A stretch of 64,000 nucleotides of DNA from Actinomycetota bacterium (GTDB lineage Bacteria > Actinomycetota > UBA4738 > CALAEC01): NCBI GenBank assembly GCA_036001425.1, contig DASYUI010000035.1, positions 1,756 to 65,755 of the forward strand. The letters are read 5' to 3'. The notes below the pieces were generated by a model. That model made no database searches. It was not told the origin of the DNA and saw nothing but the letters and a program-made list of their open reading frames with translations. The translations under genes were made by a program, and so were the position numbers. Below, piece by piece: positions 11,099 through 26,659 of the stretch; the stretch's first letter is position 1, and each line of letters opens with the position of its first letter.

Positions 11099-11871
11099 TC
11101 AGCGGGCACCTCACCTTCTCCGTTCGGAGTTTCCTGATCCAAGTTCCCCGGGGCGACGGTCTCGGTCTTCGGGCTCTCGCCTGCCTCGGGCTCTGGCTCG
11201 GGCTTGGCGGGGGGAAGCTCGACGCCCGTCGGGGTCTCCCCCGTCTCTGGCTCGGGCTTCGCGGGGGCAACCTGGCCGGCCTTCGGCGCCTCCGGTTCCC
11301 CACCCTTCGGCCCTGGCTTTGCAGGTTCGCGCCCCGGACCGACCAGCTCGATCTGATGCAGCACGTGGGCCGGCTTCGCCGCTCGGATGATGGCGTCGAG
11401 CCGGTCGACATCCACTGCCGAGCGATCGGGCACCCTGAGCCGGATCGTGAACCTCGGCTCGGGCTCACCCGGTACCCTTCCGTTCGGGGTGGGCGACCAC
11501 TCCACCCCGCCGGTGTCGACGATCTCCGGCTCCACCCCCGCGTACAGGGCAACCAGGGCGGAGACTCCCTTCACCGTCCCTCGCCACCGGTACAGCTCCA
11601 CGGCCTCGGCCACGAAGGTTCGCTGCCGCTCGAGGGGCCAGTTCTCGTCGAGCACCACGCCCACCCACCCGGCGAGCCACTCGAGGAAGTCTGTCGGGGT
11701 CAGCTTCGGATCCAGGTACGCGACCAGATTGTCCAGCGTCGATGGAAGGGGAGCCAGTACCGAGTCGAGTGCGGACGTGAACCGCTGGGTGAAATCGTCC
11801 TCCTGGTAGACGGCCGGGAGCGCCACCCCGATCGGGTGAGGGTTCGGAAGTTCCTCGATGATCCCTCGCAC
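11095..11871 (-). CDS. short phage-tail-protein-I-like baseplate protein (Afp12 N-domain-like) with P/E-rich tail
   Basis: 'LPAVYQEDDFTQRFTSALDSVLAPL...FLEWLAGWVGVVLDENWPLERQRTFVAEAVELYRWRGTVKG' is P2 gpI-like. The tail is 'AKPEPETGE...PAKPEPEPEAGE'. GTG 11871 has AAGGAG 9 nt upstream. GTG 11940 and TTG 11973 are alternative starts. Confidence 0.8.
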   Translation of the reverse strand: MRGIIEELPNPHPIGVALPAVYQEDDFTQRFTSALDSVLAPLPSTLDNLVAYLDPKLTPTDFLEWLAGWVGVVLDENWPLERQRTFVAEAVELYRWRGTVKGVSALVALYAGVEPEIVDTGGVEWSPTPNGRVPGEPEPRFTIRLRVPDRSAVDVDRLDAIIRAAKPAHVLHQIELVGPGREPAKPGPKGGEPEAPKAGQVAPAKPEPETGETPTGVELPPAKPEPEPEAGESPKTETVAPGNLDQETPNGEGEVPAE

Positions 11872-11956
11872 GGCCCCGCGCTCCTTGCTCAGCTCCCAGG
11901 TCCAGGGGGCGATGTTACCCCGCCCTGGAACACCCGTCACTCCCCAATTTTGCTGG

Positions 11957-13906
11957 TTACATCCCCTCCACAAGTACCTGATGCTCGTACGAGAACACCA
12001 GGGCGTGCGGCTCCAGCTCGATCCGAGGCATGGCCTTCCCGCGCTCGCCGGTGATGGGGTCCGCCGAGAACAAGCGAGCGTCCTCGACGAGCTCCACCCC
12101 CTTGAGGCGCTGGAGAACGGAGTAGACCTCCCCCGCCTGGACGGGCCGGCCGAACGGCCATCCCTTGCCCTCCGGCCCTCCCTTGATCGGATGGAAGTAC
12201 CGGTACAGGGCCCCGATCGCTGCCTCTTGCAGCCGCCTCGGGCTAGTCCGCGACCGGGCTCGGAGCCGGGCCACCACCGTGATCCCCTGGTACACCGGAG
12301 GCTCCACGATGACTCGGGCCCCGATGATCCGCCGCTCGTCGAGGGACTCCGCCATCCGCTGGAGTGTCTCGTCGGCCGGGACCAGTTGCTCGAACCGTAG
12401 CCTGCCCACCTCGTCGTCGGCGGCCGCCGGAACGACCAGGATGCGGACGCCTCCGGCCTCGGCGCCGTCTCCGGCAGCCACGCAGCGCACCCGAGCCACC
12501 TCGGGAGCGGACTGACGCGCCAGCTCCTCGTAATCCTCTGCCGTCACCGCCCGGTTGCGGGTCCGGAACACGATCGGGCCTCGCGCCTTAGCGTTCTCGA
12601 TGTCCTCCCCCTCGACTCCCCCGCCGGCCGGATAACGGTTCTCCACCCGAGAGATGTATGGGATCGTCGTCTTCAGCACGGAGATCTCCCCCCGGGCGAC
12701 GTTGCCCCTGGAGCCGCCACCGGTTCGGTACGTCCGGATCCGGAGCGGTGAGGCCGTGGGCGGAACCGCCCCGAATTGGCGCAAGGTGCCTTCGGGCTCC
12801 CGGACGGCAGGCCCGAGGATCACTTCGCCCGTCACCTCGTCGAGGATGAAGTGACGGTCCTCCGGGCCGCTGTCCGCGAAGTTCTCGACCTGCGTCCATT
12901 CCTGCCATCCCTCTCCGCTTCCGGACTCCAGAACCACGGCTCCGTCCCCGCGGACGACGGGCCGGTGCTTGAGCGTGAACCGTTGCCCCGGGACTCCCTC
13001 GGAGAGGCCGATGATTTCGCCCTCGACGACTTCCGCGTTCAACGCCTCGGTCGTCCCGCCGATCGTGAAGGCCGAGAGGTTCCTGATCTTGGGCGAGGCG
13101 CTGTAGAAGGGCTGCTCCTCTTCGGGCTCGAGCACTCGGCAGCGCAGCCACCCCGCCCGCTGCCGGTCGATCACGGATGCCACATGGGTTCGGGGAACGT
13201 GAAGAACGACGTCCCCCGCCTTGTTCAGCCCTCCGGTATCGTCGTGGTCGACCTCACAGGGAACCCACTGCTCCCCGTCCCACGCCTCCCACACCATCGG
13301 GGGGTTCGTCGGGTCTACGCCGACGCCCTCGACCTCGCAGACGAACCGCAGCGACACGGCGCAGGACGGAACCGGGTTCGAGAGTCCCACCAGCATGACG
13401 TCCCCCGGTTTCGGCGGGTTGGTGAAACAGTAGAACTCCTGGCCCTTGAGGAGCGCATCGGTGTGGTCCCTGATCTCGTTCTCCTCGATGGAAGAAGCCA
13501 GGCGTTCCAGCGAGCACGACACGATGGGCAAGTCCGATATCGTCGTAAAGGTGACGGGCTCCTCCCCGGTGGTCCTTTCCGTTGCCACCTGAGTGCCCGA
13601 GGAGACCTGCAGCGTGGTCTCATGCGCGCCCGAGAGCCAGAAGGTCACCTCAGACCGAGCCGCGTTCGGAGGGAACAGGCGGACCCCGATGAGCTCCAGG
13701 AACTTCACGTAGTTGCGGTCGGGTACACGGTTCACCCGGTAGATAAGCTGCTCGGTCATCCAGGCAAACGTCTCGATCAGCGTCACTCCGGGGTCGGACA
13801 CGTTGTGGTCCGTCCACTCGGGGCATCGCTGCTGGACCATCCGCTTGGCGTCGTCCACCAGCTCCTGAAACCGCCGATCGTCAAGGTTGGGTACGGGAAG
13901 GGCCAT
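11957..13906 (-). CDS. baseplate J-like protein (Afp11 / gp6-like)
   Basis: 'MALPVPNLDDRRFQELVDDAKRMVQQRCPEWTDHNVSDPGVTLIETFAWM' is the typical N-terminus of putative baseplate assembly proteins. Length is 649 aa, and it sits after gp25. Confidence 0.9.
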   Translation of the reverse strand: MALPVPNLDDRRFQELVDDAKRMVQQRCPEWTDHNVSDPGVTLIETFAWMTEQLIYRVNRVPDRNYVKFLELIGVRLFPPNAARSEVTFWLSGAHETTLQVSSGTQVATERTTGEEPVTFTTISDLPIVSCSLERLASSIEENEIRDHTDALLKGQEFYCFTNPPKPGDVMLVGLSNPVPSCAVSLRFVCEVEGVGVDPTNPPMVWEAWDGEQWVPCEVDHDDTGGLNKAGDVVLHVPRTHVASVIDRQRAGWLRCRVLEPEEEQPFYSASPKIRNLSAFTIGGTTEALNAEVVEGEIIGLSEGVPGQRFTLKHRPVVRGDGAVVLESGSGEGWQEWTQVENFADSGPEDRHFILDEVTGEVILGPAVREPEGTLRQFGAVPPTASPLRIRTYRTGGGSRGNVARGEISVLKTTIPYISRVENRYPAGGGVEGEDIENAKARGPIVFRTRNRAVTAEDYEELARQSAPEVARVRCVAAGDGAEAGGVRILVVPAAADDEVGRLRFEQLVPADETLQRMAESLDERRIIGARVIVEPPVYQGITVVARLRARSRTSPRRLQEAAIGALYRYFHPIKGGPEGKGWPFGRPVQAGEVYSVLQRLKGVELVEDARLFSADPITGERGKAMPRIELEPHALVFSYEHQVLVEGM

Positions 13907-13909
13907 CGC

Positions 13910-14359
13910 TCACTCCTCGCTCATCGAATCCACTTGCGCCGCCAGCTCCTGGGGTGTGGGTTGTTCTTCCTCGGGGGGGATCACGTAGAAGGGAAAGACC
14001 AGGTTTCTCGGGTCGTTCGTCGCCTTAATCGTGTATCGGATGTCGATGTACAGGAGAGATGGATCCTCTGTATCGAACAGGACCTCCACCGCGTCGACGT
14101 CGACACGTGGCTCCCACATCGTCAGAGCTCGACGGACCTCGAACTCGATCTCTCCTGCGGTCGCGGCTTCTGCCGAGGCGAAGATGAAGTCGTGGATCCG
14201 GCATCCGAAGGTGGGCCTCATCGGCCGTTCCCCCGGTGAGGTCATCAGGACGAGCTTGATGGCTTCCTCGATCTCCCGGTCCCGCGAAACCAGGGCGATG
14301 CTGCCCGTGGCGTCGGTGCGCAGCGGGAAGGCCCAGCCCTTGCCGACGAACTCCTCCAT
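13910..14359 (-). CDS. GPW/gp25 baseplate wedge protein (Afp9-like)
   Basis: 'GKGWAFPLRTDATGSIALVSRDREIEEAIKLVLMTSPGERPMRPTFGCRIHDFIF' is the gp25 lysozyme-like fold signature. Confidence 0.9.
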   Translation of the reverse strand: MEEFVGKGWAFPLRTDATGSIALVSRDREIEEAIKLVLMTSPGERPMRPTFGCRIHDFIFASAEAATAGEIEFEVRRALTMWEPRVDVDAVEVLFDTEDPSLLYIDIRYTIKATNDPRNLVFPFYVIPPEEEQPTPQELAAQVDSMSEE

Positions 14360-14375
14360 CCCCTTTTCTCCCTCG

Positions 14376-16160
14376 CTAGTTCAGCTTGATGACCGAGCCC
14401 TTCGCCTCGAGCACGCCCGAGGACTCGATCTTCACCATGGCCCCCTTGAGCTCCAGGTTGCCCGTAGCCTCGAACTTGACGTTCGTATCACCCTTCACCG
14501 TGATGTCCTGCGTCCCGTGGATGGTGATCTTGCCGCCGCTCTCGATCTCGATCTGCGTCTTGCCTTGATCGAGCTTCAGCATGTACTTCTTGTCTCCCGT
14601 GCTGAGCTCGACGTACTCGTCGCCGCTCTTGTCCGAGAAGATGAGCCTATGCTTGAGCCCCGAGATGAACCCTCTCCAGTTCATCTTTCCGGAGCTGTCG
14701 GGCGCCTCGAAGGGTCCAGGGTCGGCCTTGTCCACACCGTTGTAGAGCCCCCCCAGCACGTATGGGAACCGAGGGTTGCCCATGTTGAACGCCACCAGGA
14801 CCTCGTCGTCCTTCTCCGGAAGGATGACGGTTCCTCGGTCCGCCCCCGCACCGGCCTGGACCACCCGCGCCCAGTGGGAAGCGTACGCAGTGTCGCCGTC
14901 GGAGACCCAGGGGAACTTCACCTTGACCCGCCCTAGCTTGTCCGGGTCCTGAACGTCGGTGACCACTCCGATGACCACACCGTTGATCGGGGGGCCGCTG
15001 TCGAGGGTGATGTTCTCGGCCCCATTAGACAGGAGCCCATAGATCGTTCGGTCCTGGGATCCGGTCAGCATCAGGTGCGTCCGCCATCCCTGGCCATCGA
15101 ACACGTGTCGGGTGCTCCCCACGGTCCACTGCCCGACGAACTCCTTGCTGACGCCCTCGACCGAGACCGCTTCCCCCGCTCGGACCGCCATCCCGTCGAT
15201 GGTGGCCTCCGCCTCGGCGTAAGTGCTCCCGATTTGGGCCGCGAGGGTCTTGGCGAGGGCGTCCACCTCGCCTTGATCGTCATAAGGGGTGGGCTGGAGG
15301 TAAGTGGCGGATCCGAACTTTCCGGCCAGGGAGGCCGCGTCCTCCCCAAGGCCGCTCAACACGGCGTTGTTCCCCGCAATCGGCTCCTCGTTGGACTCCA
15401 GCATCTTCTTCTGGCTCGGGTCCCACCCCCTGGCCTGGGCCTTCTCGTGCTGGGGGGCGGTCACCCGAGGGACGAACGACCGTAGGTTCTGCCCGAAGAT
15501 CAGCTTCCGGCGTTCCGGCGGTCCGTCCGTCGCCCCTCCACCCGGCTCGGGAGCCTCGCTGGCCTCCGCGCGCTCCTGGAACACGAGCTGAGGCATACCG
15601 TTGGAAACGATCCGCAGCTCTCGATCGTGGGCCCGGGCTTTCGGTCCCAGGAACTCGGCCCCGGTCTGATTGAATCGGGGAACAGGGTCCTTGTATGTGA
15701 AGTCGTCGACCGTCCCGACGGTCAGCTCCGCTTCTCCCGCCACCGCCTGGACGAGACTCGCGTCGGTCGCCTGGTTGTACATCTCCGTCTTGCGTCCCCG
15801 GTGCAACCGGTGAAAGAAATCGTGGCCCCGAACGGCGATGTGCCTACCTCTTCCGGCTTCATAGGCGCCCTCGATCGCCGTGACCTCTCCGATGATGAGC
15901 AGCTCGACCTCGTTCGCTCCCAGCGGGATGCCTGAGATCTTGATCTCTGTCCCGATCGTGAGACCGGCGGCCTCGAGAAGGGACCCCCCGGGTGTGGCTC
16001 CCTCCTGGTTCCTGTACAGATCGCTGAACCGGATCGTGAAGGTATCCGGGAGCGACAGGTGGTCCTCGACCACGGTCATGTCCAGGAGCTCCACAAACTC
16101 ATCGCCCAGGAGCTGGCCGTCGATCTCGATGACCGGTTTGGTACCAAAATGCTCGTACAT
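14376..16160 (-). CDS. VgrG / phage late-control-D-like spike protein (Afp8-like)
   Basis: OB-fold segment 'GVVIGVVTDVQDPDKLGRVKVKFPWVSD...HWARVVQAGAGADRGTVILPEKDDEVLVAFNMGNPRFPYVLGGLYNG'. C-terminal beta-helix 'ITIHGTQDITVKGDTNVKFEATGNLELKGAMVKIES'. Confidence 0.9.
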   Translation of the reverse strand: MYEHFGTKPVIEIDGQLLGDEFVELLDMTVVEDHLSLPDTFTIRFSDLYRNQEGATPGGSLLEAAGLTIGTEIKISGIPLGANEVELLIIGEVTAIEGAYEAGRGRHIAVRGHDFFHRLHRGRKTEMYNQATDASLVQAVAGEAELTVGTVDDFTYKDPVPRFNQTGAEFLGPKARAHDRELRIVSNGMPQLVFQERAEASEAPEPGGGATDGPPERRKLIFGQNLRSFVPRVTAPQHEKAQARGWDPSQKKMLESNEEPIAGNNAVLSGLGEDAASLAGKFGSATYLQPTPYDDQGEVDALAKTLAAQIGSTYAEAEATIDGMAVRAGEAVSVEGVSKEFVGQWTVGSTRHVFDGQGWRTHLMLTGSQDRTIYGLLSNGAENITLDSGPPINGVVIGVVTDVQDPDKLGRVKVKFPWVSDGDTAYASHWARVVQAGAGADRGTVILPEKDDEVLVAFNMGNPRFPYVLGGLYNGVDKADPGPFEAPDSSGKMNWRGFISGLKHRLIFSDKSGDEYVELSTGDKKYMLKLDQGKTQIEIESGGKITIHGTQDITVKGDTNVKFEATGNLELKGAMVKIESSGVLEAKGSVIKLN

Positions 16161-16168
16161 CCGGCCTC

Positions 16169-16996
16169 CTAGGAAAGCCCGTCCACGTCACTCCGCGGCG
16201 GGATCAAGAGCCTCGCGCCGACGCCGACTCGCAATGGGTCATCGATCCCGTTGAAGTCGGCAAGGCCTCGCCAGAACTTCGGGTGCCCGTATGTCTGGAA
16301 CGCGATCGAGTGGAGCGTCTCTCCCTCTGTGACCAGTCGCGTGCGCCACCCGGGGGCGCCACGAGACGTCGGGTTGGTCGGAGGTGGTGGTGCGCCGCCC
16401 ACTCTCTGCAGTTCGATGGTAGCCTCGGCCCGCACGGGGGTCCCGTTCTTCCGGAACATCGTGTACGTGACGTTCGCCGACGTCAGGATGAAATGCCCAA
16501 AGATCGCCTTGCCCCACCGGAACTCGATCCAGGGTTGCTGCGCCGCCTCTGACGAAAGGAACTTCTCCACCGGCAGCGTCCAGCTGAGGAGCATATCCAC
16601 GGCGGGGGTCACGCTGGCCGCCAGCGCCTCCCACTCGTCGAAGAGGAGTTTCATGGAGAGGGTTTGGGCCTGGGGCCCCCGGTAGTCCGGGACGGGGTGG
16701 CCCGTCGTTGTATCGGGGTTCGGTTTCGCCTCCACCTTGGCGCTCTGCTTGATCGACAGCTCCGTCGGGTTGAATTTGCACACCAGCTTGCCGAGGGTCG
16801 CGATTCCGGGCTTGCTCATTAGTCCCCCCGCCCCGAACAGGAAGCTGCTTGGAGCGGCCGCCAGGCTGCTGCCGATACTGCTGACCAAGCCACCCAGGGA
16901 GAAACCGCCAGCGGCTGCCACGACGTCCTTGGGGTGGTGGGCGGTAAAAGTCGCCTTCTCAGTCTTCAGCGGATTCGAGACCGCCGACAGTCCCAT
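16169..16996 (-). CDS. LysM-domain tube-initiator-like protein (Afp7-like)
   Basis: C-terminal LysM 'ETLHSIAFQTYGHPKFWRGLADFNGIDDPLRVGVGARLLIPP'. The ATG at 16996 shares its A with the TGA of the upstream tube gene (TGATG). GTG 17005 is an alternative start. Confidence 0.85.
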   Translation of the reverse strand: MGLSAVSNPLKTEKATFTAHHPKDVVAAAGGFSLGGLVSSIGSSLAAAPSSFLFGAGGLMSKPGIATLGKLVCKFNPTELSIKQSAKVEAKPNPDTTTGHPVPDYRGPQAQTLSMKLLFDEWEALAASVTPAVDMLLSWTLPVEKFLSSEAAQQPWIEFRWGKAIFGHFILTSANVTYTMFRKNGTPVRAEATIELQRVGGAPPPPTNPTSRGAPGWRTRLVTEGETLHSIAFQTYGHPKFWRGLADFNGIDDPLRVGVGARLLIPPRSDVDGLS

Positions 16997-17469
16997 CACA
17001 CCCACCCCTTTGCGGTCTTCGCGCCCGCGGCTACGCCACCGACGCCGCCCAACTCACCCATGAACCCGTTGTGCATCAGCTCGAGCGTCTCCTTGGCGAC
17101 CTGGTTGCCGTCCGAGGTGAGCGACGGACCCGTGTACTTGCTCGGGTAGACGCCCTCCAGGTTCCATTGAGCGATCCGCTCGCCGTTGCCGTCGTAGACG
17201 CTGATCGAGGCCGTTTGCCGCTTCACCGTGACCGCCAGGCTGGAGAACCAGGCGGAGAGCACCGCGGACTCACCATCGATCGCGCGGGTCAGCTTGATAG
17301 GGGTGTACTTCATCCGCCCCGGCAGCTTGTGGACGAACCCGTTCTCCCCGCCTTCCTCGTAGTCCTTGACCGCGTATTCCGCGCCGATGCCATCGCACGA
17401 GGTGAACGTCCCCAGCATCACGCCGTCGATCCTGACCTCGAACCGGAGAGACACCGCGGTATCGGCCAT
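16996..17469 (-). CDS. second tail-tube-family protein (Afp5-like)
   Basis: 'VSLRFEVRIDGVMLGTFTSCDGIGAEYAVKDYEEGGENGFVHKLPGRMKYTPIKLTRA' is the T4 gp19-like tube pattern and is paralogous to 20122..20571. Confidence 0.85.
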   Translation of the reverse strand: MADTAVSLRFEVRIDGVMLGTFTSCDGIGAEYAVKDYEEGGENGFVHKLPGRMKYTPIKLTRAIDGESAVLSAWFSSLAVTVKRQTASISVYDGNGERIAQWNLEGVYPSKYTGPSLTSDGNQVAKETLELMHNGFMGELGGVGGVAAGAKTAKGWV

Positions 17470-17489: not shown

Positions 17490-19541
17490 CTACAGGTCCG
17501 CCAGTCGCCCGGCGCGCTCCCTGAGGTCTCGCAATTCCTGTCGGAGGAGCCGGGTCATCGGCTCGTACAGCTTGTTTGCGAGTTCCTCCATGTCCTCTTC
17601 CTTTTGAGGCTCGGGGGCCACGGCCGTGACCGGAGCAGCCTCCTCGACCCGCTGGACCGGAGCCACCGGCTCCGACGGCGGGGCATGGAAGGTCACGGAG
17701 CCATCCGCCTGCCGTTGGGCGATGCCCGCGGCCACCGCGGCGGTCGCCGGATCGACGATCGGCGCCGGCGGAGCTCCAGGCTCGGCGGGCGCCCTAGAAA
17801 CCAGCGGCATCTCCGGAGCGGCCCTCCACGCCGACTCCATCGAGCGGGCCTCTGTCTCGAGGCCCTGTCCATCGCTCGTCCTCTCGGCGGGCAGCGCGGG
17901 CCCGAGGCGCCGCTGCTGCGCCGCGTGGACCAGATCGTGCGCCACCAGGGTCCTGCCCTCGCTGGCCTCCAGCGACCCATGGTCGGCGGGGACGTGCACC
18001 TCGCCACCGGTGGTGAACGCGCGTGCCGACATCTGGCGCGCCGCCGTCGCGGTAGAGGCTTCCCTGTGGACCTTGACCTCTCTGAGGTCCACCCCCGTCC
18101 GGCGCTCGACCACCTGCCGTACGGGCTCGGGTGGGGCCTCGCTCGCCCGTTGGACGCGAGCGAGAGGCCGCGCGGACACCAGTGGCGCTACCTGGGGCGG
18201 CGGCTGCGGGCGTCCGGTCCACTCGGCAACCGGAGCCTCAAGGGCCCGGGTCGAGGAGATCGGGGCCTCGCCGACCAGCGGTCCGCTTGGTTCGGGAACG
18301 ATGTCCTCTTCCGGCTCGCCGGGGAGTGTCACCGGGCTCGGCGGCTCGGTCGAAGCAGGCGCCTCTTCCTCAGGAGCCCGCTGGGCCGGACGGGGAGATA
18401 CAGGGAGAGGCAGCTCTTCGGGGGCGCCCTGCACGGACTCGCGTGCGAGTGTCCCCTCTCCCGACACCTGCGCCTTCGAGGCTTGTTCTGCGGGCAGCGG
18501 GGTCAGGCGGCGCGGCACGGGGAGGTCCGGCCCCGTCGCGCGGGGCATCGGGGTTCTGCTCACGGTCATCTCCGGGGCGGCCTCCGAAGGCACTTCGGCT
18601 TCCCGCCCTCCTGTCGCCCACTTCCTGAGGACGGGTCTGCCAGCGAGAGGAGGTCCCTCTCCGACGACGGGCGCCACCTCTGCCATCTCTCCCCCCGAGC
18701 CGGCGATCCCCGGCGCTCGCTGGACGCCGTCCGGGCGGGGAGCCGCCATCTCCGCCTTGTCACCGCCCTCCGCCTTCCCTCTGGGAGACAGGGGCAACCT
18801 CTCGTCAGGTGCCGATGGAGTGGCCCTGGCCGTCATTGGCCGGGAGGTCAGCGGCTCGCCGAGACCGAGGCGCCTGCCGATCAGAGGCGCATCGGGTGAA
18901 GGAGCCCGCTGTACCTCACCGGGGACCGTCTCCTCTCCCTCGGCCGTGGCCTTCCCCGCCGCTTCCTCGGGGGCGGGCGCGGGGGAAGGCTCCGCCTCGC
19001 CGACCCGGCTCACCTGACTCGCCGACTCGGTCTCGGGGACGATCTCGGGCTCGGCGTCGCTGGCCGGCGGCTGCTCAGGAGCCCGCTGGACAGGCGGAAG
19101 CGATAGAGGTTGGAGGGAACGAACCGGCTCCACCTCGGGCATGCGGCCGGCCGGGGGACTCTGGGCCTGAGCGATGGGCGCGCGTTGCGCGGCGGCCCAG
19201 GCGTCCTCCGCCCTCGCGACCGCCGGCTCGTGTCGACGGTCCGGCGGGTGGGAGAAGTCGAGCTCGGGTCCTTCCGTCCGGGCTGCGGCTGGAGTCGCGA
19301 TCCCCGTCGCGATTCCGCCGGGGGCCTCGGTTCTCACGTCGTGTCCGAGCGGCTCCAGGAAATGCTCGAGCGGATGACGCGTGCCGAGGTCGTGAACGAA
19401 CCCTTCGGAATGAGCCGAGGGTTCGATGGGATCCACGGCGCGCTGGATGGGAGGCAGCGACCGCCATGCGGCCGGCTCCGAACGGGATGTCGGTCCCGCT
19501 AGAGTCGGAGCCGGCCGAGGTCGGCGAAACGGCCAGCGCAC
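17490..19541 (-). CDS. tape-measure-position protein with DUF4157 (eCIS core) domain and repeated [VIA]QRAP motifs
   Basis: 683 aa, GTG start. The N-terminal two thirds are Pro/Ala/Glu-rich and disordered. DUF4157-like segment 'VERRTGVDLREVKVHREASTATAARQMSARAFTTGGEVHVPAD...LVAHDLVHAAQQ'. C-terminal helix 'EEDMEELANKLYEPMTRLLRQELRDLRERAGRLADL'. It lies between the chaperone-like genes and tube 2, which is the tape-measure slot in P2-like tails. Confidence 0.8.
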   Translation of the reverse strand: MRWPFRRPRPAPTLAGPTSRSEPAAWRSLPPIQRAVDPIEPSAHSEGFVHDLGTRHPLEHFLEPLGHDVRTEAPGGIATGIATPAAARTEGPELDFSHPPDRRHEPAVARAEDAWAAAQRAPIAQAQSPPAGRMPEVEPVRSLQPLSLPPVQRAPEQPPASDAEPEIVPETESASQVSRVGEAEPSPAPAPEEAAGKATAEGEETVPGEVQRAPSPDAPLIGRRLGLGEPLTSRPMTARATPSAPDERLPLSPRGKAEGGDKAEMAAPRPDGVQRAPGIAGSGGEMAEVAPVVGEGPPLAGRPVLRKWATGGREAEVPSEAAPEMTVSRTPMPRATGPDLPVPRRLTPLPAEQASKAQVSGEGTLARESVQGAPEELPLPVSPRPAQRAPEEEAPASTEPPSPVTLPGEPEEDIVPEPSGPLVGEAPISSTRALEAPVAEWTGRPQPPPQVAPLVSARPLARVQRASEAPPEPVRQVVERRTGVDLREVKVHREASTATAARQMSARAFTTGGEVHVPADHGSLEASEGRTLVAHDLVHAAQQRRLGPALPAERTSDGQGLETEARSMESAWRAAPEMPLVSRAPAEPGAPPAPIVDPATAAVAAGIAQRQADGSVTFHAPPSEPVAPVQRVEEAAPVTAVAPEPQKEEDMEELANKLYEPMTRLLRQELRDLRERAGRLADL

Positions 19542-19547
19542 GTCCGG

Positions 19548-19706
19548 TCACCCCTCTTCCGCGAGGCGCCGGTTGATCCGGCCGATTTCCTCCACGAAAC
19601 GCTGGCGCAGGGAATGCTCGAGGTCGAGGATCTCGTCCAGCGACCAGTGGAAATGGTAGGCCACGTACGCAACCTCCTCATAGAGACGGTCGGTTGCGTA
19701 CGTCAT
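19548..19706 (-). CDS. 52-aa conserved-looking small protein (resembles the eCIS-associated family I recall as DUF6760)
   Basis: Below the ORF-track cutoff. Translates to MTYATDRLYEEVAYVAYHFHWSLDEILDLEHSLRQRFVEEIGRINRRLAEEG. Its ATG overlaps the upstream stop (ATGA), and it is in the -1 frame relative to the upstream gene. Confidence 0.65.
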   Translation of the reverse strand: MTYATDRLYEEVAYVAYHFHWSLDEILDLEHSLRQRFVEEIGRINRRLAEEG

Positions 19707-20125
19707 GATCCCCCCGGTGCACCACCGGCCACATCGACCGTGAACTCATGCTCGCAGGAGGGGCACGTCACGGTGGCCCGTGTGTGCCCCTCCTGGTTGA
19801 TCCGTCGATACAGGTCCTGCAGGAACGCCAGGTCGGAGGCGAACAGACCTTCGATCGTGGCCGGCGTCACCTCCCGGAGGTCGCCGAGCTGCGTGACCAC
19901 CCGGGACAGAAGGAGCACCGTGAGGTACGCCTCGTTGTCGCGAACCCTCGGGTCCCGGAGCGGGAGAATCTCGTCCCGTGCCGTGGCCAAGCGGATGACA
20001 CCCCGCTTGTGCGTGGTCCCCGAGTCGTCCGTGTACCCGATGGGTAGCTCGAACTCGAACTCCGTCCGTACGGCCTCGCCACGCGATTCCCGGCCGGCCA
20101 CCTCCGCTGGGCTCGGCGCTCTCAT
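19703..20125 (-). CDS. tail-assembly-chaperone-like protein (gpE/gpG position) with C-terminal CxxC
   Basis: 'FEFELPIGYTDDSGTTHKRGVIRLATARDEILPLRDPRVRDNEAYLTVLLLSRVVTQLG...TVTCPSCEHEF'. Sits directly after the tube gene and before the tape-measure-like gene. Its ATG overlaps the tube stop (ATGA at 20122-20125). Confidence 0.7.
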   Translation of the reverse strand: MRAPSPAEVAGRESRGEAVRTEFEFELPIGYTDDSGTTHKRGVIRLATARDEILPLRDPRVRDNEAYLTVLLLSRVVTQLGDLREVTPATIEGLFASDLAFLQDLYRRINQEGHTRATVTCPSCEHEFTVDVAGGAPGGS

Positions 20126-20571
20126 GCGGGAGCGAGTCCTTCGTGGACGATGGTGCACTCCTCGACGAGGATGTCGTTCCCCGAAGCCGAGAGCGCACCG
20201 ATGCTCACCTTTGACGGCCAGCCGTTCACGAAGTTGAACCGGCCCACCTCGCCTCTGGCGTAGTCGTACAGGACCACCGAGCCGTTCCTGCGGGCGGTCT
20301 CGATGTTCCCGTCCTGGACCTCCTTGATCCAGTCCCAGAGGGCCTTGTCGTTCGTCTTCCCGTGCTTGAGCGTGATGGGCCCGAACTTCTTCGCCCCGGG
20401 GAGCTGCTTCATCAGGGCGAGACCGCCCAACTTGTTCTCCCGGTGCTCGATCACCTGGATCTCGGCCGAGAGACCGCTCACTTCCTTGAACTGGGCCATC
20501 GAGACGCCGTCGATCTCGATCTGGAAGGTATAACCAGCGACTGCGTCTCCTCCGGCGATATCAATTCCCAC
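20122..20571 (-). CDS. tail tube protein (Afp1-like, T4 gp19 family)
   Basis: 'YTFQIEIDGVSMAQFKEVSGLSAEIQVIEHRENKLGG...KQLPGAKKFGPITLKHGKTNDKALWDWIKEV'. Confidence 0.9.
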   Translation of the reverse strand: MGIDIAGGDAVAGYTFQIEIDGVSMAQFKEVSGLSAEIQVIEHRENKLGGLALMKQLPGAKKFGPITLKHGKTNDKALWDWIKEVQDGNIETARRNGSVVLYDYARGEVGRFNFVNGWPSKVSIGALSASGNDILVEECTIVHEGLAPA

Positions 20572-20617: not shown

Positions 20618-22153
20618 CTACTCCGACACCTCCGCGCCGCCCGAGAACTGGGCGAGACGGAACACCACGAACTCGGCCGGCTTGACCGGCGCGATGCCGA
20701 TCTCCACCGTGACCTGTCCGGCGTCCACCATGTCCGGGGGGTTGGTCTCCTCGTCGCACTTGACGAAGAAGGCCGCCTCCGGGGTGGCCCCGAACAGGGC
20801 CCCATCCCGCCACAGCCGGAGCAGGAAGGAGGTGATCGTCCGGCGGAGCCGGGCCCAGAGGTCCATGTCGTTCGGCTCGAACACGACCCACTGGGTGCCG
20901 AGCAGGATCGACTCCTCGATGTAGTTGAAGAGCCGACGGACGTTGATGTACCGCCATGCGGAATCGCTGGACAGGGTCCTCGCGCCCCACACCCTGATTC
21001 CCCGGCCGGGGAAGGCCCGGATGACGTTGACCCCGATGGGGTTCAGGAGGTCGTGCTCGGCCTTGGTGATATTGGTCTCGAGGGTGATCGCTCCCCTGAT
21101 GACCTCGTTCGCGGGAGCCTTGTGCACGCCCCGGGTGTCGTCGTTTCGGCCCCAGATACCGGCCAGGTGGCCGCTCGGTGGCACGAACGTGTTCTGTCCG
21201 CTGGCCGGGTCGAACACCTTGATCCACGGCCAGTACAGAACGGCGAACTTGGAGTCGTAGCCGGCCTTGTCGACCCGCCACTCGCGGATCTGCTGAGCGG
21301 TCAGGCCGGGCGGCGCGTCCAGGACCGCCATCCGGTCACCCATGTTCTCGCAGTGCGCGATCATGGCTAGCTGGACCGCCTGGAGCCCCTCGAGGTCGAT
21401 CATGCCCTTCTGGTAGGCGGCCATGAGGTCCGGGCAGGACACCATGGTCACCTCGTCGATGGCCTCTAGACCTCCGAGGCCCGTCCGGTCCGCGGCGTCG
21501 CCGACGTAGTCCTCGGGAGCGATCCGAGTGGGCGCAGGGGCCCCGCCGCCAGCCAGGCTGACCTTGCTGCCGGTGGCCGGCCGACGCTCCAGCGTGGAAG
21601 CCGAGCCCACCTCTTGGAGCTGGATGAGCTTCGACTCCGCGTTGACCACCGTGACGGCGTTCTGCTTTCCCTTCTTCGTCGTCAGGTTGTCGAAGGACTC
21701 CTCGACCTTGGTTCCCCGCTTCACGACGAGCTTGAAGGTCTCTTCCTTCTCACCTTCCGAGGCGTCCTGCACCTCGACGGTGAGGTCGTTGCCGGCGGTG
21801 CCCTCCTCCAGCGCGAGCACGCGGTAGGCCGACAGGTCTTCCTTGGCCCCGCTGGGCAGCTCGCCCCGGGCGGTGGGTGGGCCGGCGCCGTCCTGTCCTA
21901 CGCGGACCACGTACGCCGCGCCGCCGCCATTGTTGAAGTAGCCGTACACCGCGTGGGCCAGGTACGAGCCCTCGATGAAGTCACCGAAGGTCTGCGAGAA
22001 CTGGCTCCAGTTGGTGACCAGGGTCGGGGTGTTCACGGGTCCCTGCGCCGCCATCCCCGCGAACGCGGCGACGGCGGTCCCCACACCCTCGATCGGTCGA
22101 GACCCGGCCTCTACTTCCTCTACGTAGACGCCGGGCGACAAGTACTGAGGCAT
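20618..22153 (-). CDS. contractile tail sheath protein (Afp2-4-like)
   Basis: 'MPQYLSPGVYVEEVEAGSRPIEGVGTAVAAFAGMA' is the canonical sheath N-terminus. C-terminal 'GVNVIRAFPGRGIRVWGARTL'. RBS GGAGAGGAGG. Confidence 0.95.
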   Translation of the reverse strand: MPQYLSPGVYVEEVEAGSRPIEGVGTAVAAFAGMAAQGPVNTPTLVTNWSQFSQTFGDFIEGSYLAHAVYGYFNNGGGAAYVVRVGQDGAGPPTARGELPSGAKEDLSAYRVLALEEGTAGNDLTVEVQDASEGEKEETFKLVVKRGTKVEESFDNLTTKKGKQNAVTVVNAESKLIQLQEVGSASTLERRPATGSKVSLAGGGAPAPTRIAPEDYVGDAADRTGLGGLEAIDEVTMVSCPDLMAAYQKGMIDLEGLQAVQLAMIAHCENMGDRMAVLDAPPGLTAQQIREWRVDKAGYDSKFAVLYWPWIKVFDPASGQNTFVPPSGHLAGIWGRNDDTRGVHKAPANEVIRGAITLETNITKAEHDLLNPIGVNVIRAFPGRGIRVWGARTLSSDSAWRYINVRRLFNYIEESILLGTQWVVFEPNDMDLWARLRRTITSFLLRLWRDGALFGATPEAAFFVKCDEETNPPDMVDAGQVTVEIGIAPVKPAEFVVFRLAQFSGGAEVSE

Positions 22154-22369: not shown

Positions 22370-23068
22370 TTACGTGGCGGCGGGTGCTTCCTCTTCTTCT
22401 TCTTCTTCGGTGGCCTCTTGGGTGGCGACTTCCTCTTCTTCCTCTTCCGCCTCGCGGCCCACCGGAGCAGTCTGGAGCTCTTCTTCCTCTTCCGCCTCGC
22501 GGCCCACCGACGCTCCCGCATCGCTCCGTGCGGTGACCCTGTCCGCTACCGCGCTCGCTTGCTGCTCGGAGGCGTCGCCGGGGTCGGAGACTTCGAGCTT
22601 CTGCGCAGGCGGGGCGTTCCGCTGCTGGACCACGTGGGTCAGCTCGTGCGCCAGGAGCTTGTCCCCGTCGCCGCTTCCCGGCTGGTACTCGCCGGAACGG
22701 AAGAAGATGTCCTGCCCCGTGGTGAAGGCCTTGGCCTTGACCGACCGTGACAGCGAGTCCGCCTCCGTGTCGTTGTGAACGCGCACGCCGGAGAAGTCCT
22801 CGCCCATGGTTCGCTCCATCTTCTGGCGAGACCCCTCATCCAGGGTCGAGCCCCCTCCTCGCTTGGACTGGATGGCCCGGGCGATGGTGTCGTCGACGTC
22901 CGCTCCCTTCGCCCCCTTCATCTGCACACGTAGCTTCGGAACCAGTCGCTGCATGGCCTGGTTTCCAAGACGGCCCTCGCCGCCGGTCGGGTCCTTCGAA
23001 CGCGCCGCCTCACCCTCGGCGGGCTTCCGCGAGGACTTCCGGACCTCGTCGATGTCGAACGAATCCAT
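22370..23068 (-). CDS. DUF4157 (eCIS core domain) zincin-like protein with intact HExxH and poly-Glu tail
   Basis: 'STLDEGSRQKMERTMGEDFSGVRVHNDTEADSLSRSVKAKAFTTGQDIFFRSGEY...LLAHELTHVVQQ'. The C-terminus carries 'VGREAEEEEE' twice and an EEEEEEE run. Confidence 0.85.
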   Translation of the reverse strand: MDSFDIDEVRKSSRKPAEGEAARSKDPTGGEGRLGNQAMQRLVPKLRVQMKGAKGADVDDTIARAIQSKRGGGSTLDEGSRQKMERTMGEDFSGVRVHNDTEADSLSRSVKAKAFTTGQDIFFRSGEYQPGSGDGDKLLAHELTHVVQQRNAPPAQKLEVSDPGDASEQQASAVADRVTARSDAGASVGREAEEEEELQTAPVGREAEEEEEEVATQEATEEEEEEEAPAAT

Positions 23069-23086: not shown

Positions 23087-25177
23087 CTACAGGCGCGGCG
23101 GGCCATCCAACGCCTCGCTTGTCGACACCAGGTGGAAATATGGTCCGAACTCCGCCTCCACGCACAACCGCCCGAGCTTGCGGTACTCGCGCTGGACCCC
23201 TCGGATGAGGTCCTCCACCGAAACGGATCTCTCCGCGTCCGCCGCCAGGTACGCAGCCGTGACGCAGATGTTCCGGATGTTCCCACCGGAGAATTCGAAG
23301 GACTTGGCCAGGAAATCGAGGTCCAGGTCTCCCTCCCTGGGGACCTCCGGGCTCAGGCACTTCTCCCACAGCGAACGGCGATGTCTCTCATCGGGCATGG
23401 GGAAGTCCACGATGACGTCGAGCCTTCGGGTGAACGCCTCGTCGAGGTTGGCCCTCAGGTTGGTGGCCAGGATGGCCATCCCCTCGAAGGTCTCCATCCG
23501 CTGCAGCAGGTATGCCACCTCGATGTTGGCGTAGCGGTCGTGGGCGTCCTTGACCTCGGACCTCTTTCCGAACAACGCGTCCGCCTCGTCGAAGAAGAGG
23601 ACGCCGTTGACACCCTCCGCCTCGGAGAAGATGCGTTCGAGGTTCTTCTCGGTCTCTCCGATGTACTTGTCCACCACGGTGGCCAGGTCGATCGTGTAGA
23701 GGTCCAGCCCGAGCTCGCCGGATAGCACCTCCGCGGCCATGGTCTTCCCGGTCCCGGACTCACCCGCGAACAGGGCCGTGATCCCCCCGCCCCGGCCGCC
23801 CCCCTTCCGCATCCCCCACTCCCCGAGGACGCGCTCCCGGTACCGCGCCCGGGCGGACAACTCGTGGAGGTGAGCGAGGGTATCGGCCGGGAGGACGATG
23901 TCTTGCCACCCAACCGCCGGCTCGATCCGGCGGGCCAGCCTCTCCAACCCAGCGGCGTTCTGGGCCCGGGCCCCCGCCCTGAGGTCGGTCGGGTCAATGG
24001 ATCGGCCGGCGTAGGAGGCTCGCAGGCGAGCGGCCGTGGCCGCCCTGGCCACCTGTTCGGGGCCGAGGCGGAAGGGGGTCATGACCGCCGCCGCGTCCAG
24101 CTCCTTCGGGGTGTCGCCGTCGAGGTGGGCCCGCCACATGCCGGCTCGCTCCTCCGGCCCGGGGAGGCCGACGTCGACGACCAGCGGGATCTCCCGTGAC
24201 CACATGGGGTCCCAGTTCCGTGTCCCGGTGATCACCACGGGCCAGGGGATCTCGGCGAATGCCCGCACGCCGAGCGCTCCGCGCTCCACGACCTGTTCGA
24301 CCGGCCCCACCACCAGACCAGCCCCTCGCAGGCCCGCCTCGCGCCCCGCCGCTGCGGCGATGGCGGTGGGGTCGTCGTCAACGGTCAGTCGAGCCAGGTC
24401 GAGGGCCAGCGTGGGGATCCCCATCCCGGCGAAGGCGGCCGCGGCAAGCCCTCGTCCCGCGCCCGCCAGCCGCTCCCGCAGGTAGCAGAGCCGCGCGCCC
24501 TCGGCGATGGCGCGAGCCAGGGCCTCCCCGTCTTGCTCGTCCCAGCTGATCGGAGAGGCCAGGAGTGTGGTGAGCGCGTGGTCGGGGCGGTCGTCGCCCA
24601 AGAGATGAGCCGCGACCCGGTCCGGGACCCGCAGGGTCCGCGTGAGGAACGGCCGATCGGGGTCCTCCACCAGGATGAGCCCCGCCTCGACCAGAGGGCT
24701 TCCCCCCTGTAGCCTTCGCCGGGCGCGGGCGTCGGCCGGTGAGGCTCCGCACAGTTCCAGAGACAGGCCCACGCTGGCCCGCCGGCGGGTCACGTCGTCG
24801 TGCAGATACCCGTAGAGGCGTTCGAACCGCGCGTCGAGGTCCGGCGCCAGCGAAACGAGGAGAAGCTCGGCATCGAGGGGCTCGAGATCGAAGGTCTTTG
24901 CCAGGCGCCGGAGCCGGATGTCCTCTCCCTCGGCCTCAGCGGTGTCGGCGGCCTTCTCCACGCGCGACAGGTCCTCGGCTGCCGCGGGATCGGGCGGGGG
25001 CGGTGGGGCCGGGGCATCCAGGAGCTGGTCGACCTGCTCTTCCGTGAGGTAGAGACCACGGAAGGGGTCGTCGGGTTCCGGGTCTCCGGCCCGGCGGCGG
25101 TTGACTGCCGCCTTCACGCGAGCCTCCACGACGGCCAAGCGACCCAGGAGGTGCTCGAGCGATGGAGACGGCTTCAT
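23087..25177 (-). CDS. AAA+ ATPase (Afp15-like)
   Basis: Walker A 'FAGESGTGKTMAAEVL', Walker B 'VLFFDEADALFGKR', and 'ILATNLRANLDEAFTRRLD'. ATG 25177 overlaps the DUF4255 stop (ATGA). The ORF-track extension to 25624 is Arg/Pro-rich, a frame artefact. Confidence 0.9.
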   Translation of the reverse strand: MKPSPSLEHLLGRLAVVEARVKAAVNRRRAGDPEPDDPFRGLYLTEEQVDQLLDAPAPPPPPDPAAAEDLSRVEKAADTAEAEGEDIRLRRLAKTFDLEPLDAELLLVSLAPDLDARFERLYGYLHDDVTRRRASVGLSLELCGASPADARARRRLQGGSPLVEAGLILVEDPDRPFLTRTLRVPDRVAAHLLGDDRPDHALTTLLASPISWDEQDGEALARAIAEGARLCYLRERLAGAGRGLAAAAFAGMGIPTLALDLARLTVDDDPTAIAAAAGREAGLRGAGLVVGPVEQVVERGALGVRAFAEIPWPVVITGTRNWDPMWSREIPLVVDVGLPGPEERAGMWRAHLDGDTPKELDAAAVMTPFRLGPEQVARAATAARLRASYAGRSIDPTDLRAGARAQNAAGLERLARRIEPAVGWQDIVLPADTLAHLHELSARARYRERVLGEWGMRKGGGRGGGITALFAGESGTGKTMAAEVLSGELGLDLYTIDLATVVDKYIGETEKNLERIFSEAEGVNGVLFFDEADALFGKRSEVKDAHDRYANIEVAYLLQRMETFEGMAILATNLRANLDEAFTRRLDVIVDFPMPDERHRRSLWEKCLSPEVPREGDLDLDFLAKSFEFSGGNIRNICVTAAYLAADAERSVSVEDLIRGVQREYRKLGRLCVEAEFGPYFHLVSTSEALDGPPRL

Positions 25178-25890
25178 CGGGAATCGCGGGAGCGGGTGCT
25201 CCTTCCGGCCTTCGCCTGCTTCCCGGCCGGCTTTCGCTCCTCTTCCTTCTCCTTCGTAGCGTCCCCGTTGCCGGACAAGGTGCGCTGCACCCGACCACCT
25301 GCCTGGTCTCGCGTGCCTTCTGGGCCGGCGAGCTTGACGACGGGCTCCGCGAGCACCGGCGGGCCCGCCTCGACCATCCGGCGGGGGTCGAACGGCGCGG
25401 TGATCACCAGGTCCAGTGAGGGCTTGAGCTCTCCGCCAAGTGCGGACCAGACGTCGGAGAGGTTTCGGTCCTTGGGGGGCGGCAGCCCCACCTGAGAGAT
25501 GACGGCCAGCGGCTGGTCGGCCAGCGATCCGACGAGCACGTCTCGAGGCAGCGCGTCGCGACGGAGGAAGCAGGTCAGCACCGCCGCAAGGAGCCGGTGC
25601 TCGTCCTCCGGACGCTGGGTCCACGCGGTGAGGAGATAGGAAAGCTTGAATCGCCGAGGAGGCGGCCGTCGTTCGGTCACCCGGCCGGTCTTGTCCCTGA
25701 TCTCCTCGTACTCGACCTGGCGCCGCTCGAGGTCCTCCCGGATGTCGTACAGGTAGACGCTGACCGTGGGACTGTTGCGGCGGGCCGCCCAGTCCTTCGT
25801 CGGCGCGTCGAACGTCACCTCGACGTCGGCGCCGTTCAGCGCCTCGCGCCGGATGAGGTTCCGGAGCGCCTCATCGACCTCGTGGATCAT
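25174..25890 (-). CDS. DUF4255 / Pvc16-Afp16-like tail terminator (cap) protein
   Basis: 'MIHEVDEALRNLIRREAL...VEVTFDAPTKDWAARRNSPTVSVYLYDIREDLERRQ...FKLSYLLTAWTQRPEDEHRLLAAVLTCF' is the typical Pvc16 N-terminal domain pattern. Confidence 0.85.
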   Translation of the reverse strand: MIHEVDEALRNLIRREALNGADVEVTFDAPTKDWAARRNSPTVSVYLYDIREDLERRQVEYEEIRDKTGRVTERRPPPRRFKLSYLLTAWTQRPEDEHRLLAAVLTCFLRRDALPRDVLVGSLADQPLAVISQVGLPPPKDRNLSDVWSALGGELKPSLDLVITAPFDPRRMVEAGPPVLAEPVVKLAGPEGTRDQAGGRVQRTLSGNGDATKEKEEERKPAGKQAKAGRSTRSRDSR

Positions 25891-26032: not shown

Positions 26033-26659
26033 CTAGATCAGTCCCTGCCGAAGTGCGAAGGCGACCGCGTGGGACCGGTTGCGCAGATGGAACCGGGTGG
26101 TGATGTCGTGGATGATGTTCTTGATCGTCCGCTCCGAGTACGCGAGCTGCTGGGCGATCTCCGCGGTGTCCATTCCTTCGGCCACGAGCTTCAGCACGCC
26201 GAGCTCCCGCTCGGTCAGGCCCGAGAAGGTAAGACCCCGAGGAGCCAGCACATGACGCTGGAGCCTGCCCACCTGAGACAGCAAGCGTCCCAAGAGGTCA
26301 GGTGGAACGGTGCCATCGCCCTGGGCGGCCGCGACCACTGCCCTGGTCAGGATCTCAGGCGTGGCTTCCGAGCGCCGAAGGAGCCCACAGGCGCCCGCCT
26401 CGACCGCCGCCACCAGGCCACCGTCGTCGGGCCGGGCCACGACCAGGACCACCCGAGGACCGCCGCTGCGCTGGATGGCCTTGATGACCCGAAGGGTCTC
26501 ATCGTCGACCTCGTCCGCGGCGACGACCGCGACATCGGCCTGGTCGACCTCGGTCTCGCTCAGGACTTCGAGCTCAGGGCGTCCGCGAAGCTCGGCCGCG
26601 ATCCCCGCCTGTGAGATCGGGTCTCGCGCATAGACGAACACGGGTACGCGCTCCGTCAT
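26033..26659 (-). CDS. LuxR/NarL-family regulator with degenerate (pseudo-)receiver domain
   Basis: C-terminal HTH 'LTERELGVLKLVAEGMDTAEIAQQLAYSERTIKNIIHDITTRFHL'. The N-terminal REC-like fold starts 'VFVYARDPIS', where NarL has 'LLIDDHP'. Confidence 0.85.
   Translation of the reverse strand: MTERVPVFVYARDPISQAGIAAELRGRPELEVLSETEVDQADVAVVAADEVDDETLRVIKAIQRSGGPRVVLVVARPDDGGLVAAVEAGACGLLRRSEATPEILTRAVVAAAQGDGTVPPDLLGRLLSQVGRLQRHVLAPRGLTFSGLTERELGVLKLVAEGMDTAEIAQQLAYSERTIKNIIHDITTRFHLRNRSHAVAFALRQGLI

Follow-up and report, generated by a model that had tools for sequence, protein, structure and literature searches.

We examined a gene on the minus strand of a 64,000-nucleotide stretch of DNA from an Actinomycetota bacterium (assembly GCA_036001425.1, contig DASYUI010000035.1), which in its entirety is called the window below. 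The gene lies within a contractile injection system (CIS) cluster that occupies approximately 11.1 to 25.9 kb of the window, also on the minus strand, in the order cap, AAA+ ATPase, small DUF4157 protein, sheath, tube, chaperone-like protein, DUF6760 protein, the gene in question, tube 2, CIS_tube, VgrG, gp25, baseplate J and Tail_P2_I. Because the succession of sheath, tube, chaperone, gene and hub is the classical myovirus order, we describe the gene as occupying the tape-measure slot and its product as the slot protein. A sequence-only reading of this DNA had placed the gene there, and the position is borne out by a gene matching PHROG 508 upstream and by tube 2, the tube initiator and the spike downstream. 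The slot gene is not the standout largest open reading frame (ORF) of the cluster, being about the size of the AAA+ ATPase gene (approximately 700 codons once its start is corrected) and slightly larger than that of baseplate J (649 residues). Its main features are as follows.

17490..19541, minus strand: the whole slot ORF, 683 residues, read from a GTG codon at 19541 to a stop codon at 17490-17492 (ORF and translation).
19242..19541, minus strand: N-terminal module, residues 1-100, MRWPF.R ... AWRSLPPIQR ... PLGHDV..EAP.GIATGIA (conservation).
18147..19241, minus strand: Pro/Ala/Glu-rich linker predicted to be disordered, residues 101-465 (AlphaFold2 and composition).
17907..18131, minus strand: eCIS_core domain (formerly DUF4157), residues 471-545 within a folded unit of approximately 466-576 (Pfam PF13699, 66.1 bits against a cut-off of 22, E=3e-18).
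17925..17939, minus strand: HDLVH, residues 535-539, a zincin HExxH motif with Glu replaced by Asp (translation).
17682..17750, minus strand: small element predicted to fold as a helix and hairpin, residues 598-620, AAVAAGIAQRQADGSVTF (AlphaFold, predicted local distance difference test score, pLDDT, approximately 87).
17493..17600, minus strand: C-terminal amphipathic helix and tail, residues 648-683, EELANKLYEPMTRLLRQELRDLRERAGRLADL (AlphaFold, hydrophobic moment and conservation).

The GTG start is taken as correct because the N-terminus, MRWPF, fits the family consensus. In an AlphaFold2 model built from an alignment of 34 sequences, residues 1-465 have mostly pLDDT values below 50 and essentially no secondary structure; from residue 54 to residue 471 secondary structure is absent and pLDDT lies below approximately 50. 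The linker at residues 101-465, which carries a net charge of -17 and contains most of the motif copies described below, is modelled without secondary structure and stays under 50 nearly throughout, reaching the low 50s locally. The N-terminal module is also modelled with low confidence and is invariant at most columns among five close relatives. The model leaves approximately two thirds of the chain disordered and does not show a standard helical tape measure, in agreement with the sequence-only reading, which had taken the protein for a disordered ruler and not a helical one. In contrast, the DUF4157 unit is modelled with pLDDT values of 90-96. No transmembrane segment was detected in the slot protein (the maximum 19-residue hydropathy is 1.09), and neither Pfam nor the AlphaFold2 model reveals an effector domain. 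The part after DUF4157 is short, about 135 residues, and contains only the 23-residue conserved element at 598-620, in which many columns are invariant among close relatives, and a single helix. A Foldseek search of the model, which is mostly disordered, returned nothing under E=2 from the PDB; a PDB sequence profile search with the slot family gave no meaningful match, and neither NCBIfam nor PHROGs assigned the slot protein to a family.

No other part of the slot family is as widely conserved as the C-terminal helix. This helix is modelled at residues 648-676 with a pLDDT of approximately 87, and its hydrophobic moment is 0.52 compared with 0.20 in shuffled sequences (p=0.002). The signature LA..LY..I..RLR.EL..DRER.G is kept in nearly all full-length slot proteins examined, in Chloroflexota, Actinomycetota, Dehalococcoidia-type loci and Streptomyces plasmids, and the ORFs in the slot share the longer consensus E.ELE.LA..LY.RI..RLR.ELL.DRER.G...D. 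The helix is also found in slot proteins that lack DUF4157, such as those of Amycolatopsis and Georgenia, which have no Pfam match at all. The amphipathic C-terminal helix that had been proposed from the translation is thus upheld by the predicted structure, by the hydrophobic moment and by conservation across phyla.

A second characteristic of the slot protein is a short motif centred on Gln-Arg (QR). The sequence-only reading had counted ten copies by residue number, all of which are exact in the translation. The copies are listed here with the number of DUF4157-bearing relatives, out of 33, that share the alignment column; positional conservation was scored in the alignment of these relatives with the slot protein (34 sequences).

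19434..19448, minus strand: IQRAV at residue 32, within the N-terminal W..LPPIQR signature; shared by 5/33.
19176..19190, minus strand: AQRAP at residue 118, positionally conserved; shared by 23/33.
19077..19091, minus strand: VQRAP at residue 151, lineage-specific; shared by 0/33.
18900..18914, minus strand: VQRAP at residue 210, VQR invariant in the five closest relatives; shared by 8/33.
18711..18725, minus strand: VQRAP at residue 273; shared by 12/33.
18420..18434, minus strand: VQGAP at residue 370, degenerate; two close relatives (P0001 and P0002) have TQRAP at this site.
18372..18386, minus strand: AQRAP at residue 386; Gln invariant in the five closest relatives.
18141..18155, minus strand: VQRAS at residue 463, eight residues before DUF4157, positionally conserved; shared by 25/33.
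Minus strand: AQRQ at residue 608, inside the element at residues 598-620 (translation and AlphaFold).
17643..17657, minus strand: VQRVE at residue 629, approximately 20 residues before the C-terminal helix, the best-conserved copy; shared by 27/33.

At the last of these sites R631 is invariant and Q630 is conserved in at least 90% of the 34 sequences. The expectation that the motifs would be conserved among relatives therefore holds at residues 118, 463 and 629; elsewhere their number and place vary, the remaining copies being common to 0-12 of the 33 relatives. An IQR motif of the residue-32 type is common in slot proteins without DUF4157. Most copies do lie in sequence predicted to be disordered, as had been thought probable, but AQRQ at 608 sits inside a confidently modelled fold. 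The motifs had also been called periodic, and this did not survive examination: successive copies are separated by 86, 33, 59, 63, 97, 16, 77, 145 and 21 residues, and spacing is aperiodic in the wider family as well: in 77 full-length members it is broadly distributed, the median being 86 residues.

The window is approximately 68% GC and contains many long spurious ORFs, and Ala and Pro make up 31% of the slot protein, features that could suggest that the motifs are a by-product of biased composition or of a DNA repeat, or that the ORF is no real gene. We measured enrichment against 20,000 shuffles of the slot protein itself. The pattern [VIA]QRAP occurs 5 times against 0.016 expected, [VIAL]QRA 7 times against 0.12, and [VIAL]QR 9 times against 0.79; for all three patterns none of the 20,000 shuffles reached the observed count. 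Codon strings for [VI]QR on the same strand are 12 times denser in the ORF than in the remainder of the window, and all of those in the ORF are in its frame. The ten copies use synonymous codons (CAG/CAA for Gln, CGC/CGG/CGA for Arg, GTC/GTA/GTG for Val), and Tandem Repeats Finder detected no tandem DNA repeat, the only direct repeats being 15-nucleotide stretches coding for VQRAP, so that we reject a DNA-repeat origin. The restriction to one frame, the synonymous codons and the absence of a tandem repeat together argue that the QR motif is selected at the protein level. A real gene is likewise indicated by homologues that are full-length and 60% identical, by hundreds of family clusters, by the confident Pfam domain and by the confidently modelled segment, and we regard an artefact as refuted, with only the slightest residual chance.

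Relatives of the slot protein were sampled from 80 loci collected by anchoring on the sheath gene; most of the loci belong to Chloroflexota (Limnocylindrales), Acidimicrobiia and Actinomycetes. In approximately 40 of them an ORF of 550-1216 residues lies between the chaperone-like gene and tube 2. The gene order of the window recurs in these loci and also in Streptomycetaceae megaplasmids, with slot ORFs ranging from 550 to 1381 residues overall. These ORFs share the N-terminal consensus MRWPF.R ... AWR.LPPIQR ... PLGH.V..EAP.G.V.GIA, which is found in slot proteins of Chloroflexota, Amycolatopsis, Georgenia and Streptomyces, and a Pro/Ala-rich middle region with an RRLGLG.P motif. When 1.84 billion representatives were scanned in full with HMMER, 527 clusters (50% identity) were recovered at E<=1e-30, and all named members are annotated as 'hypothetical protein' or 'DUF4157 domain-containing protein'. 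All proteins retrieved with a profile joining the N-terminal module to the C-terminal helix (A2) were 69-221 residues long, and full-length members were missed; most of the retrieved proteins look like C-terminal fragments of longer genes. Dehalococcoidia-type loci (L052-L072) have a different order, in which the chaperone-like gene, DUF6760 and tube 2 are followed by a gene of 460-930 residues and then by a LysM gene, and in some of them a small DUF4157 gene directly precedes tube 2. The product of the 460-930-residue gene shares the C-terminal helix signature with the slot proteins but differs from them at the N-terminus and contains few QR motifs.

In over-representation across 38 slot proteins, no other tripeptide comes close to VQR and IQR (approximately 30-fold); Val occupies the position before QR in 51% of the sites, and Pro is enriched at positions -3 and -2. 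The motif count per protein has a median of 4 and a range of 0-16 in the 77 full-length members. The motif is not confined to slot proteins. Small DUF4157 proteins of related clusters carry LLxLQRTAGN approximately 100 residues upstream of HExxH, and up to five C-terminal tandem units of 15 residues, (E)VQxLAIQR(E/Q)xxE, occur in those encoded upstream of the sheath in four loci (L033, L036, L026 and L027). The window's own 232-residue DUF4157 protein has only GNQAMQRLV and an acidic tail. The occurrence of the same motif in both kinds of protein points to a short linear motif shared by DUF4157-associated proteins in this clade. We found no description of the QR motif in the literature searched.

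The DUF4157 segment recognized in the sequence-only reading is confirmed by the profile match to PF13699, with bounds at residues 471-545. In the slot protein it lies between 69% and 80% of the way along the chain, and across the family HExxH has a median relative position of 0.75. The domain is absent from most slot ORFs extracted from the loci, and by this sequence comparison it is optional in the family. That HDLVH stands here where the 232-residue paralogue has HELTH had also been reported, correctly, and proves to be a lineage-specific departure: among 57 family members with HxxxHxxQQ, Glu is present in 56 and Asp only in the window protein, which with D536 departs from the HExxH form of DUF4157 and keeps both His residues. 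The closest relatives (P0001 and P0002) have HELVH; in P0003 and P0004, which come next, the domain is decayed. Replacement of Glu by Asp is expected to weaken zincin catalysis, and to judge from the sequence putative peptidase activity, if there is any, is probably weakened in the window protein. DUF4157 is known as the 'eCIS core domain' of extracellular contractile injection systems (eCISs), where it is a marker of toxins and is tied to long linkers (PMC8213781, PMC11297309).

These observations bear on a different explanation of the motifs, in which [VIL]QR sites in slot proteins and small DUF4157 proteins are cut by a DUF4157 zincin, either in cis or by the 232-residue HELTH paralogue, during maturation or after ejection, thereby releasing modules. 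The conserved copies do flank modules, with residue 118 following the N-terminal module, 463 preceding DUF4157 and 629 preceding the C-terminal helix; in the small proteins the motif lies on both sides of DUF4157. The cluster encodes an intact HELTH paralogue, and Geller et al. proposed that DUF4157 acts in toxin release or maturation (PMC8213781). However, the toxicity of the AlgoCIS protein Cgo1 is independent of its metalloprotease motifs (PMC8894135), DUF4157 is dispensable for loading (bioRxiv 10.64898/2026.05.27.728243), and the paper on the Streptomyces protein Tme reports no cleavage (PMC11126660). Moreover, the C-terminal tandem 15-residue units look more like binding repeats than cleavage sites. 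We know of no demonstration of peptidase activity for DUF4157. Processing at the motifs appears unlikely to us, and we prefer to read them as candidate docking sites.

Among described proteins, the nearest to the slot protein is Tme (BN159_7576) of the Streptomyces davawensis CIS, which occupies the same slot. It is a DUF4157 protein encoded directly upstream of the tube-initiator and spike genes and is approximately 70% disordered by prediction, in both respects like the slot protein; it co-purifies with the spike and tube initiator and has been proposed to derive from phage tape measures (PMC11126660). The slot gene likewise lies directly upstream of baseplate genes, the synteny seen for Tme-like effectors. 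In contrast to the slot protein, in which DUF4157 lies at residues 471-545 of 683, Tme has 2247 residues and an N-terminal DUF4157, together with multiple transmembrane helices, coiled coils and a C-terminal EndA-like nuclease that have no equivalent in the slot protein; remote homology to phage tape measures is detectable in Tme only (PMC11126660). Tme therefore ends in an enzyme, whereas the slot protein ends in a conserved helix. The S. lividans SLP adaptor Sle2 (SLIV_17110) is the counterpart of the window's 232-residue DUF4157 protein by the sheath gene. Sle2 was tested against spike-complex proteins and binds a tape-measure-like effector, and it is the product of a separate small gene and no slot protein (PMC13277306). 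The QR motif is not described in that paper (PMC13277306), although small-protein relatives of the Sle2 type in the loci studied here carry it.

Parallel in architecture are the AlgoCIS proteins Cgo1 and Cgo2, in which a disordered N-terminal region is followed by DUF4157. They are cargo of the tube lumen, and the disordered region serves as the loading signal (PMC8894135; bioRxiv 10.64898/2026.05.27.728243). That loading requires the N-terminal disorder and not DUF4157 parallels the optional DUF4157 of the slot family. The likeness raises the alternative that the slot protein is purely a cargo or effector of the DUF4157 class, loaded by the AAA+ ATPase and ejected, with no role in assembly or length. 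The arrangement of a disordered N-terminus, DUF4157 and a short C-terminal part agrees with it (PMC8894135; bioRxiv 10.64898/2026.05.27.728243), as do the presence in the cluster of an AAA+ ATPase with a winged-helix domain, the use of DUF4157 as a marker of eCIS toxins (PMC8213781, PMC11297309), and the QR motif common to small DUF4157 proteins, themselves candidate cargo or adaptors. However, Cgo proteins have large C-terminal domains, whereas the slot protein, with its short stretch after DUF4157, has no distinct folded effector domain there; its catalytic Glu is lost in the window; and the N-terminal module, the helix and the position after the chaperone are kept even in slot proteins without DUF4157. 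Cargo genes, by comparison, are usually variable and located at operon ends (PMC8213781). Neither a QR motif nor a C-terminal anchor helix is reported for Cgo proteins, both of which reside in the tube lumen. The ruler measured in AlgoCIS is another protein, the helical tape measure Alg14. We consider a pure cargo role possible, though rather doubtful.

Several features recall tape measures instead. The gene stands in the same position relative to chaperone and baseplate-hub genes as those of the phage tape measures T4 gp29 and P2 gpT, and its length varies between lineages, as do those of Afp14, Pvc14, Alg14 and phage tape measures. Its C-terminal end is conserved, as would be expected of a hub-binding anchor by analogy. 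The C-termini of phage and eCIS tape measures anchor in the hub.

Taking this together, we think it somewhat probable that, in a lineage-II contractile injection system of the Actinomycetota/Chloroflexota type, the slot protein is the lumen (tape-measure-slot) protein, anchored by its helix and carrying motifs for docking. The C-terminal helix would, by analogy, anchor the chain in the tube-initiator/spike hub, the disordered chain would run through the tube lumen, and the QR motifs would be short docking sites for a conserved partner, with DUF4157 as a dispensable accessory. The likeliest partner would be the chaperone-like protein together with DUF6760; otherwise it may be the tube lumen or the AAA+ loader. 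The chaperone pair is favored because it is encoded directly upstream and is among the best-conserved products of the cluster. Phage chaperones coat tape measures. Both DUF6760 and the chaperone-like gene occur in every clade, even those poor in QR motifs, so that co-occurrence was no guide to chaperone docking. We would place the slot protein with the DUF4157 and tape-measure-related lumen proteins as a new variant, its function being inferred.

A number of points weigh against this interpretation. Profile searches recognize the known tape measures of eCISs and phages, which are largely alpha-helical, whereas the slot protein is predicted to be mostly disordered; searches of Pfam, NCBIfam, PHROGs and PDB sequences gave no tape-measure match for it. 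Among the 77 full-length members motif count is weakly correlated with protein length (r=0.24), which together with the aperiodic spacing argues against a simple ruler with one motif per tube ring. In distant relatives that have this C-terminal helix, QR motifs are rare or absent, so that the helix, whatever its role, does not depend on them. The disordered N-terminal part and DUF4157 fit a cargo protein equally well. Because distant relatives keep the helix without the motifs, and because motif number does not scale with length, the setting of length is the least certain step and the weakest link of the proposed mechanism: Afp14 and Alg14 are proven rulers, and for the slot protein this is a candidate role.

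The megaplasmids of Streptomycetaceae are of interest with respect to length. Their slot ORFs are given here in the coordinates of each locus.

11792-15937: Streptomyces clavuligerus (L082), 1381 residues, 20 copies of [VIL]QR, C-terminus ...LDRLARRLVAPLSRLLRAELRGDRERVGRLRDG.
10793-14500: Streptomyces sp. NBC_01426 (L083), 1235 residues, C-terminal signature present.
10632-14363: Kitasatospora (L084), 1243 residues, annotated as a DUF4157 protein.

Of the S. clavuligerus and NBC_01426 ORFs, the PLSDB gene tables list no more than the final 71 and 255 residues, respectively, preceded by gaps of approximately 2.9 to 3.9 kb, and for S. clavuligerus they place an antisense 'hypothetical protein' within the ORF. 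The PLSDB table omits pseudogenes, and the gaps are thus a caveat and no proof of mis-annotation. The C-terminal 'proteins' of 70-220 residues from the A2 profile search fit the same pattern of truncation. The length coefficient of eCISs is 0.216-0.229 nm per residue (bioRxiv 10.64898/2026.05.27.728243), which would correspond to approximately 147-156 nm for 683 residues and 266-316 nm for 1235-1381 residues, values that are suggestive only. Particles of CIS-Sc are uniformly 268 nm long. We did not find an orthologue of the slot gene in S. coelicolor and do not claim that CIS-Sc has one; the papers show divergent transcription of sco4248 and sco4249, an operon layout unlike that of the window.

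Lineage-II eCISs in general, in a survey of eCIS loci (PMC6899500), and Streptomyces CISs, in three papers (PMC10066040, PMC10286715, PMC12237407), have been stated to have no tape measure gene. The slot family, which is large and unannotated, is a candidate for this 'missing' tape measure. It is conceivable, although we would not count on it, that lineage-II systems use a new kind of ruler, in which a disordered chain is anchored by its helix in the hub, [VIL]QR handles are read by the chaperone pair or the tube, the same motif recruits small DUF4157 proteins to the lumen, and the gene has been overlooked partly through truncated annotation. If this were true, a disordered ruler would represent a new physical solution to length control. 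The [VIL]QR motif, being common to slot and small DUF4157 proteins, could serve cargo loading and engineering in programmable injection systems.

The other genes of the cluster are as follows.

25174..25890, minus strand: cap/tail terminator (Pvc16_N, DUF4255; Pfam E=3e-45).
23087..25624, minus strand: AAA+ ATPase, Cis15-like, listed as 845 residues (Pfam WHD, AAA and AAA_lid_3).
22370..23068, minus strand: small DUF4157 protein, 232 residues, with intact HELTH and GNQAMQRLV upstream of it (Pfam PF13699, E=7e-33).
20618..22153, minus strand: sheath (Pfam Phage_sheath_1 and Phage_sheath_1C).
20122..20571, minus strand: inner tube protein 1 (Pfam Phage_T4_gp19, E=2e-36).
19703..20158, minus strand: tail-assembly-chaperone-like gene, listed as 151 residues (PHROG 508, tail assembly chaperone, E=4.7e-6).
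19548..19706, minus strand: DUF6760 gene, 52 residues, MTYATDRLYEEVAYVAYHFHW... (Pfam PF20546, E=3.5e-15).
16996..17469, minus strand: tube protein 2, a Cis5/Cis1b-like adaptor (Pfam Phage_T4_gp19, NCBIfam CIS5_fam).
16169..17005, minus strand: tube initiator/spike hub (Pfam CIS_tube, E=2e-19).
14376..16160, minus strand: VgrG-like spike (Pfam Phage_base_V).
13910-14359, minus strand: gp25 baseplate gene.
11957-13906, minus strand: baseplate J, 649 residues.
11095-11973, minus strand: Tail_P2_I/Cis12-like baseplate gene.

The listed AAA+ ORF is over-extended, with an Arg/Ala-rich N-terminus that overlaps the cap gene; translation probably begins at the Met of MKPSPSLEHLL near 25180, which would give approximately 697 residues, and the homologue in L081, the closest related cluster, has 695. 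Similarly, the chaperone-like gene probably starts near 20125. Its product is 49-74% identical across related loci and 60-74% identical in the closer ones, and a PDB sequence search with it gave no meaningful match. The DUF6760 gene, which was missing from the gene list of the sequence-only reading, lies between the chaperone-like gene and the slot gene and overlaps the stop of the former by 4 nucleotides. It is present in 73 of the 80 related loci, with approximately 80% identity in the closer loci, where no gene of the cluster, the sheath included, is better conserved, and we found no mention of DUF6760 in the literature searched. A chaperone-like gene with a short overlapping ORF recalls the G/GT or E/E' chaperone pairs of phages. 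Homologues of the tube initiator on Streptomyces plasmids are annotated as LysM proteins.

Just past the Cis12-like gene, at 8981-11098 on the minus strand, lies a gene for a protein of 705 residues with zinc ribbons at its N-terminus and in mid-protein, approximately 200 residues of EEAERKAREEA-type charged repeats (coiled coil), an apparent membrane-spanning stretch, and a C-terminal domain that is NADase_transloc/discoidin-like (glycan-binding-type). A gene sharing its N-terminus occupies the equivalent position in approximately 20 related loci. The protein may be a membrane adaptor comparable to CisA. We considered this coiled-coil protein as an alternative ruler and set it aside, since it lies beyond the baseplate genes and a membrane adaptor seems more likely.

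Between the small DUF4157 gene and the sheath gene, L081 has a gene of 250 residues (2392-3144) with a weak phospholipase A2 match. The window has no gene at this site, and the L081 gene may be variable cargo. The cluster in the window is flanked by genes for a regulator of 996 residues with AAA_16, Trans_reg_C and BTAD domains (6004-8994, plus strand) and for a GerE/LuxR response regulator (26033-26659, minus strand), types that Geller et al. reported adjoining eCIS operons.

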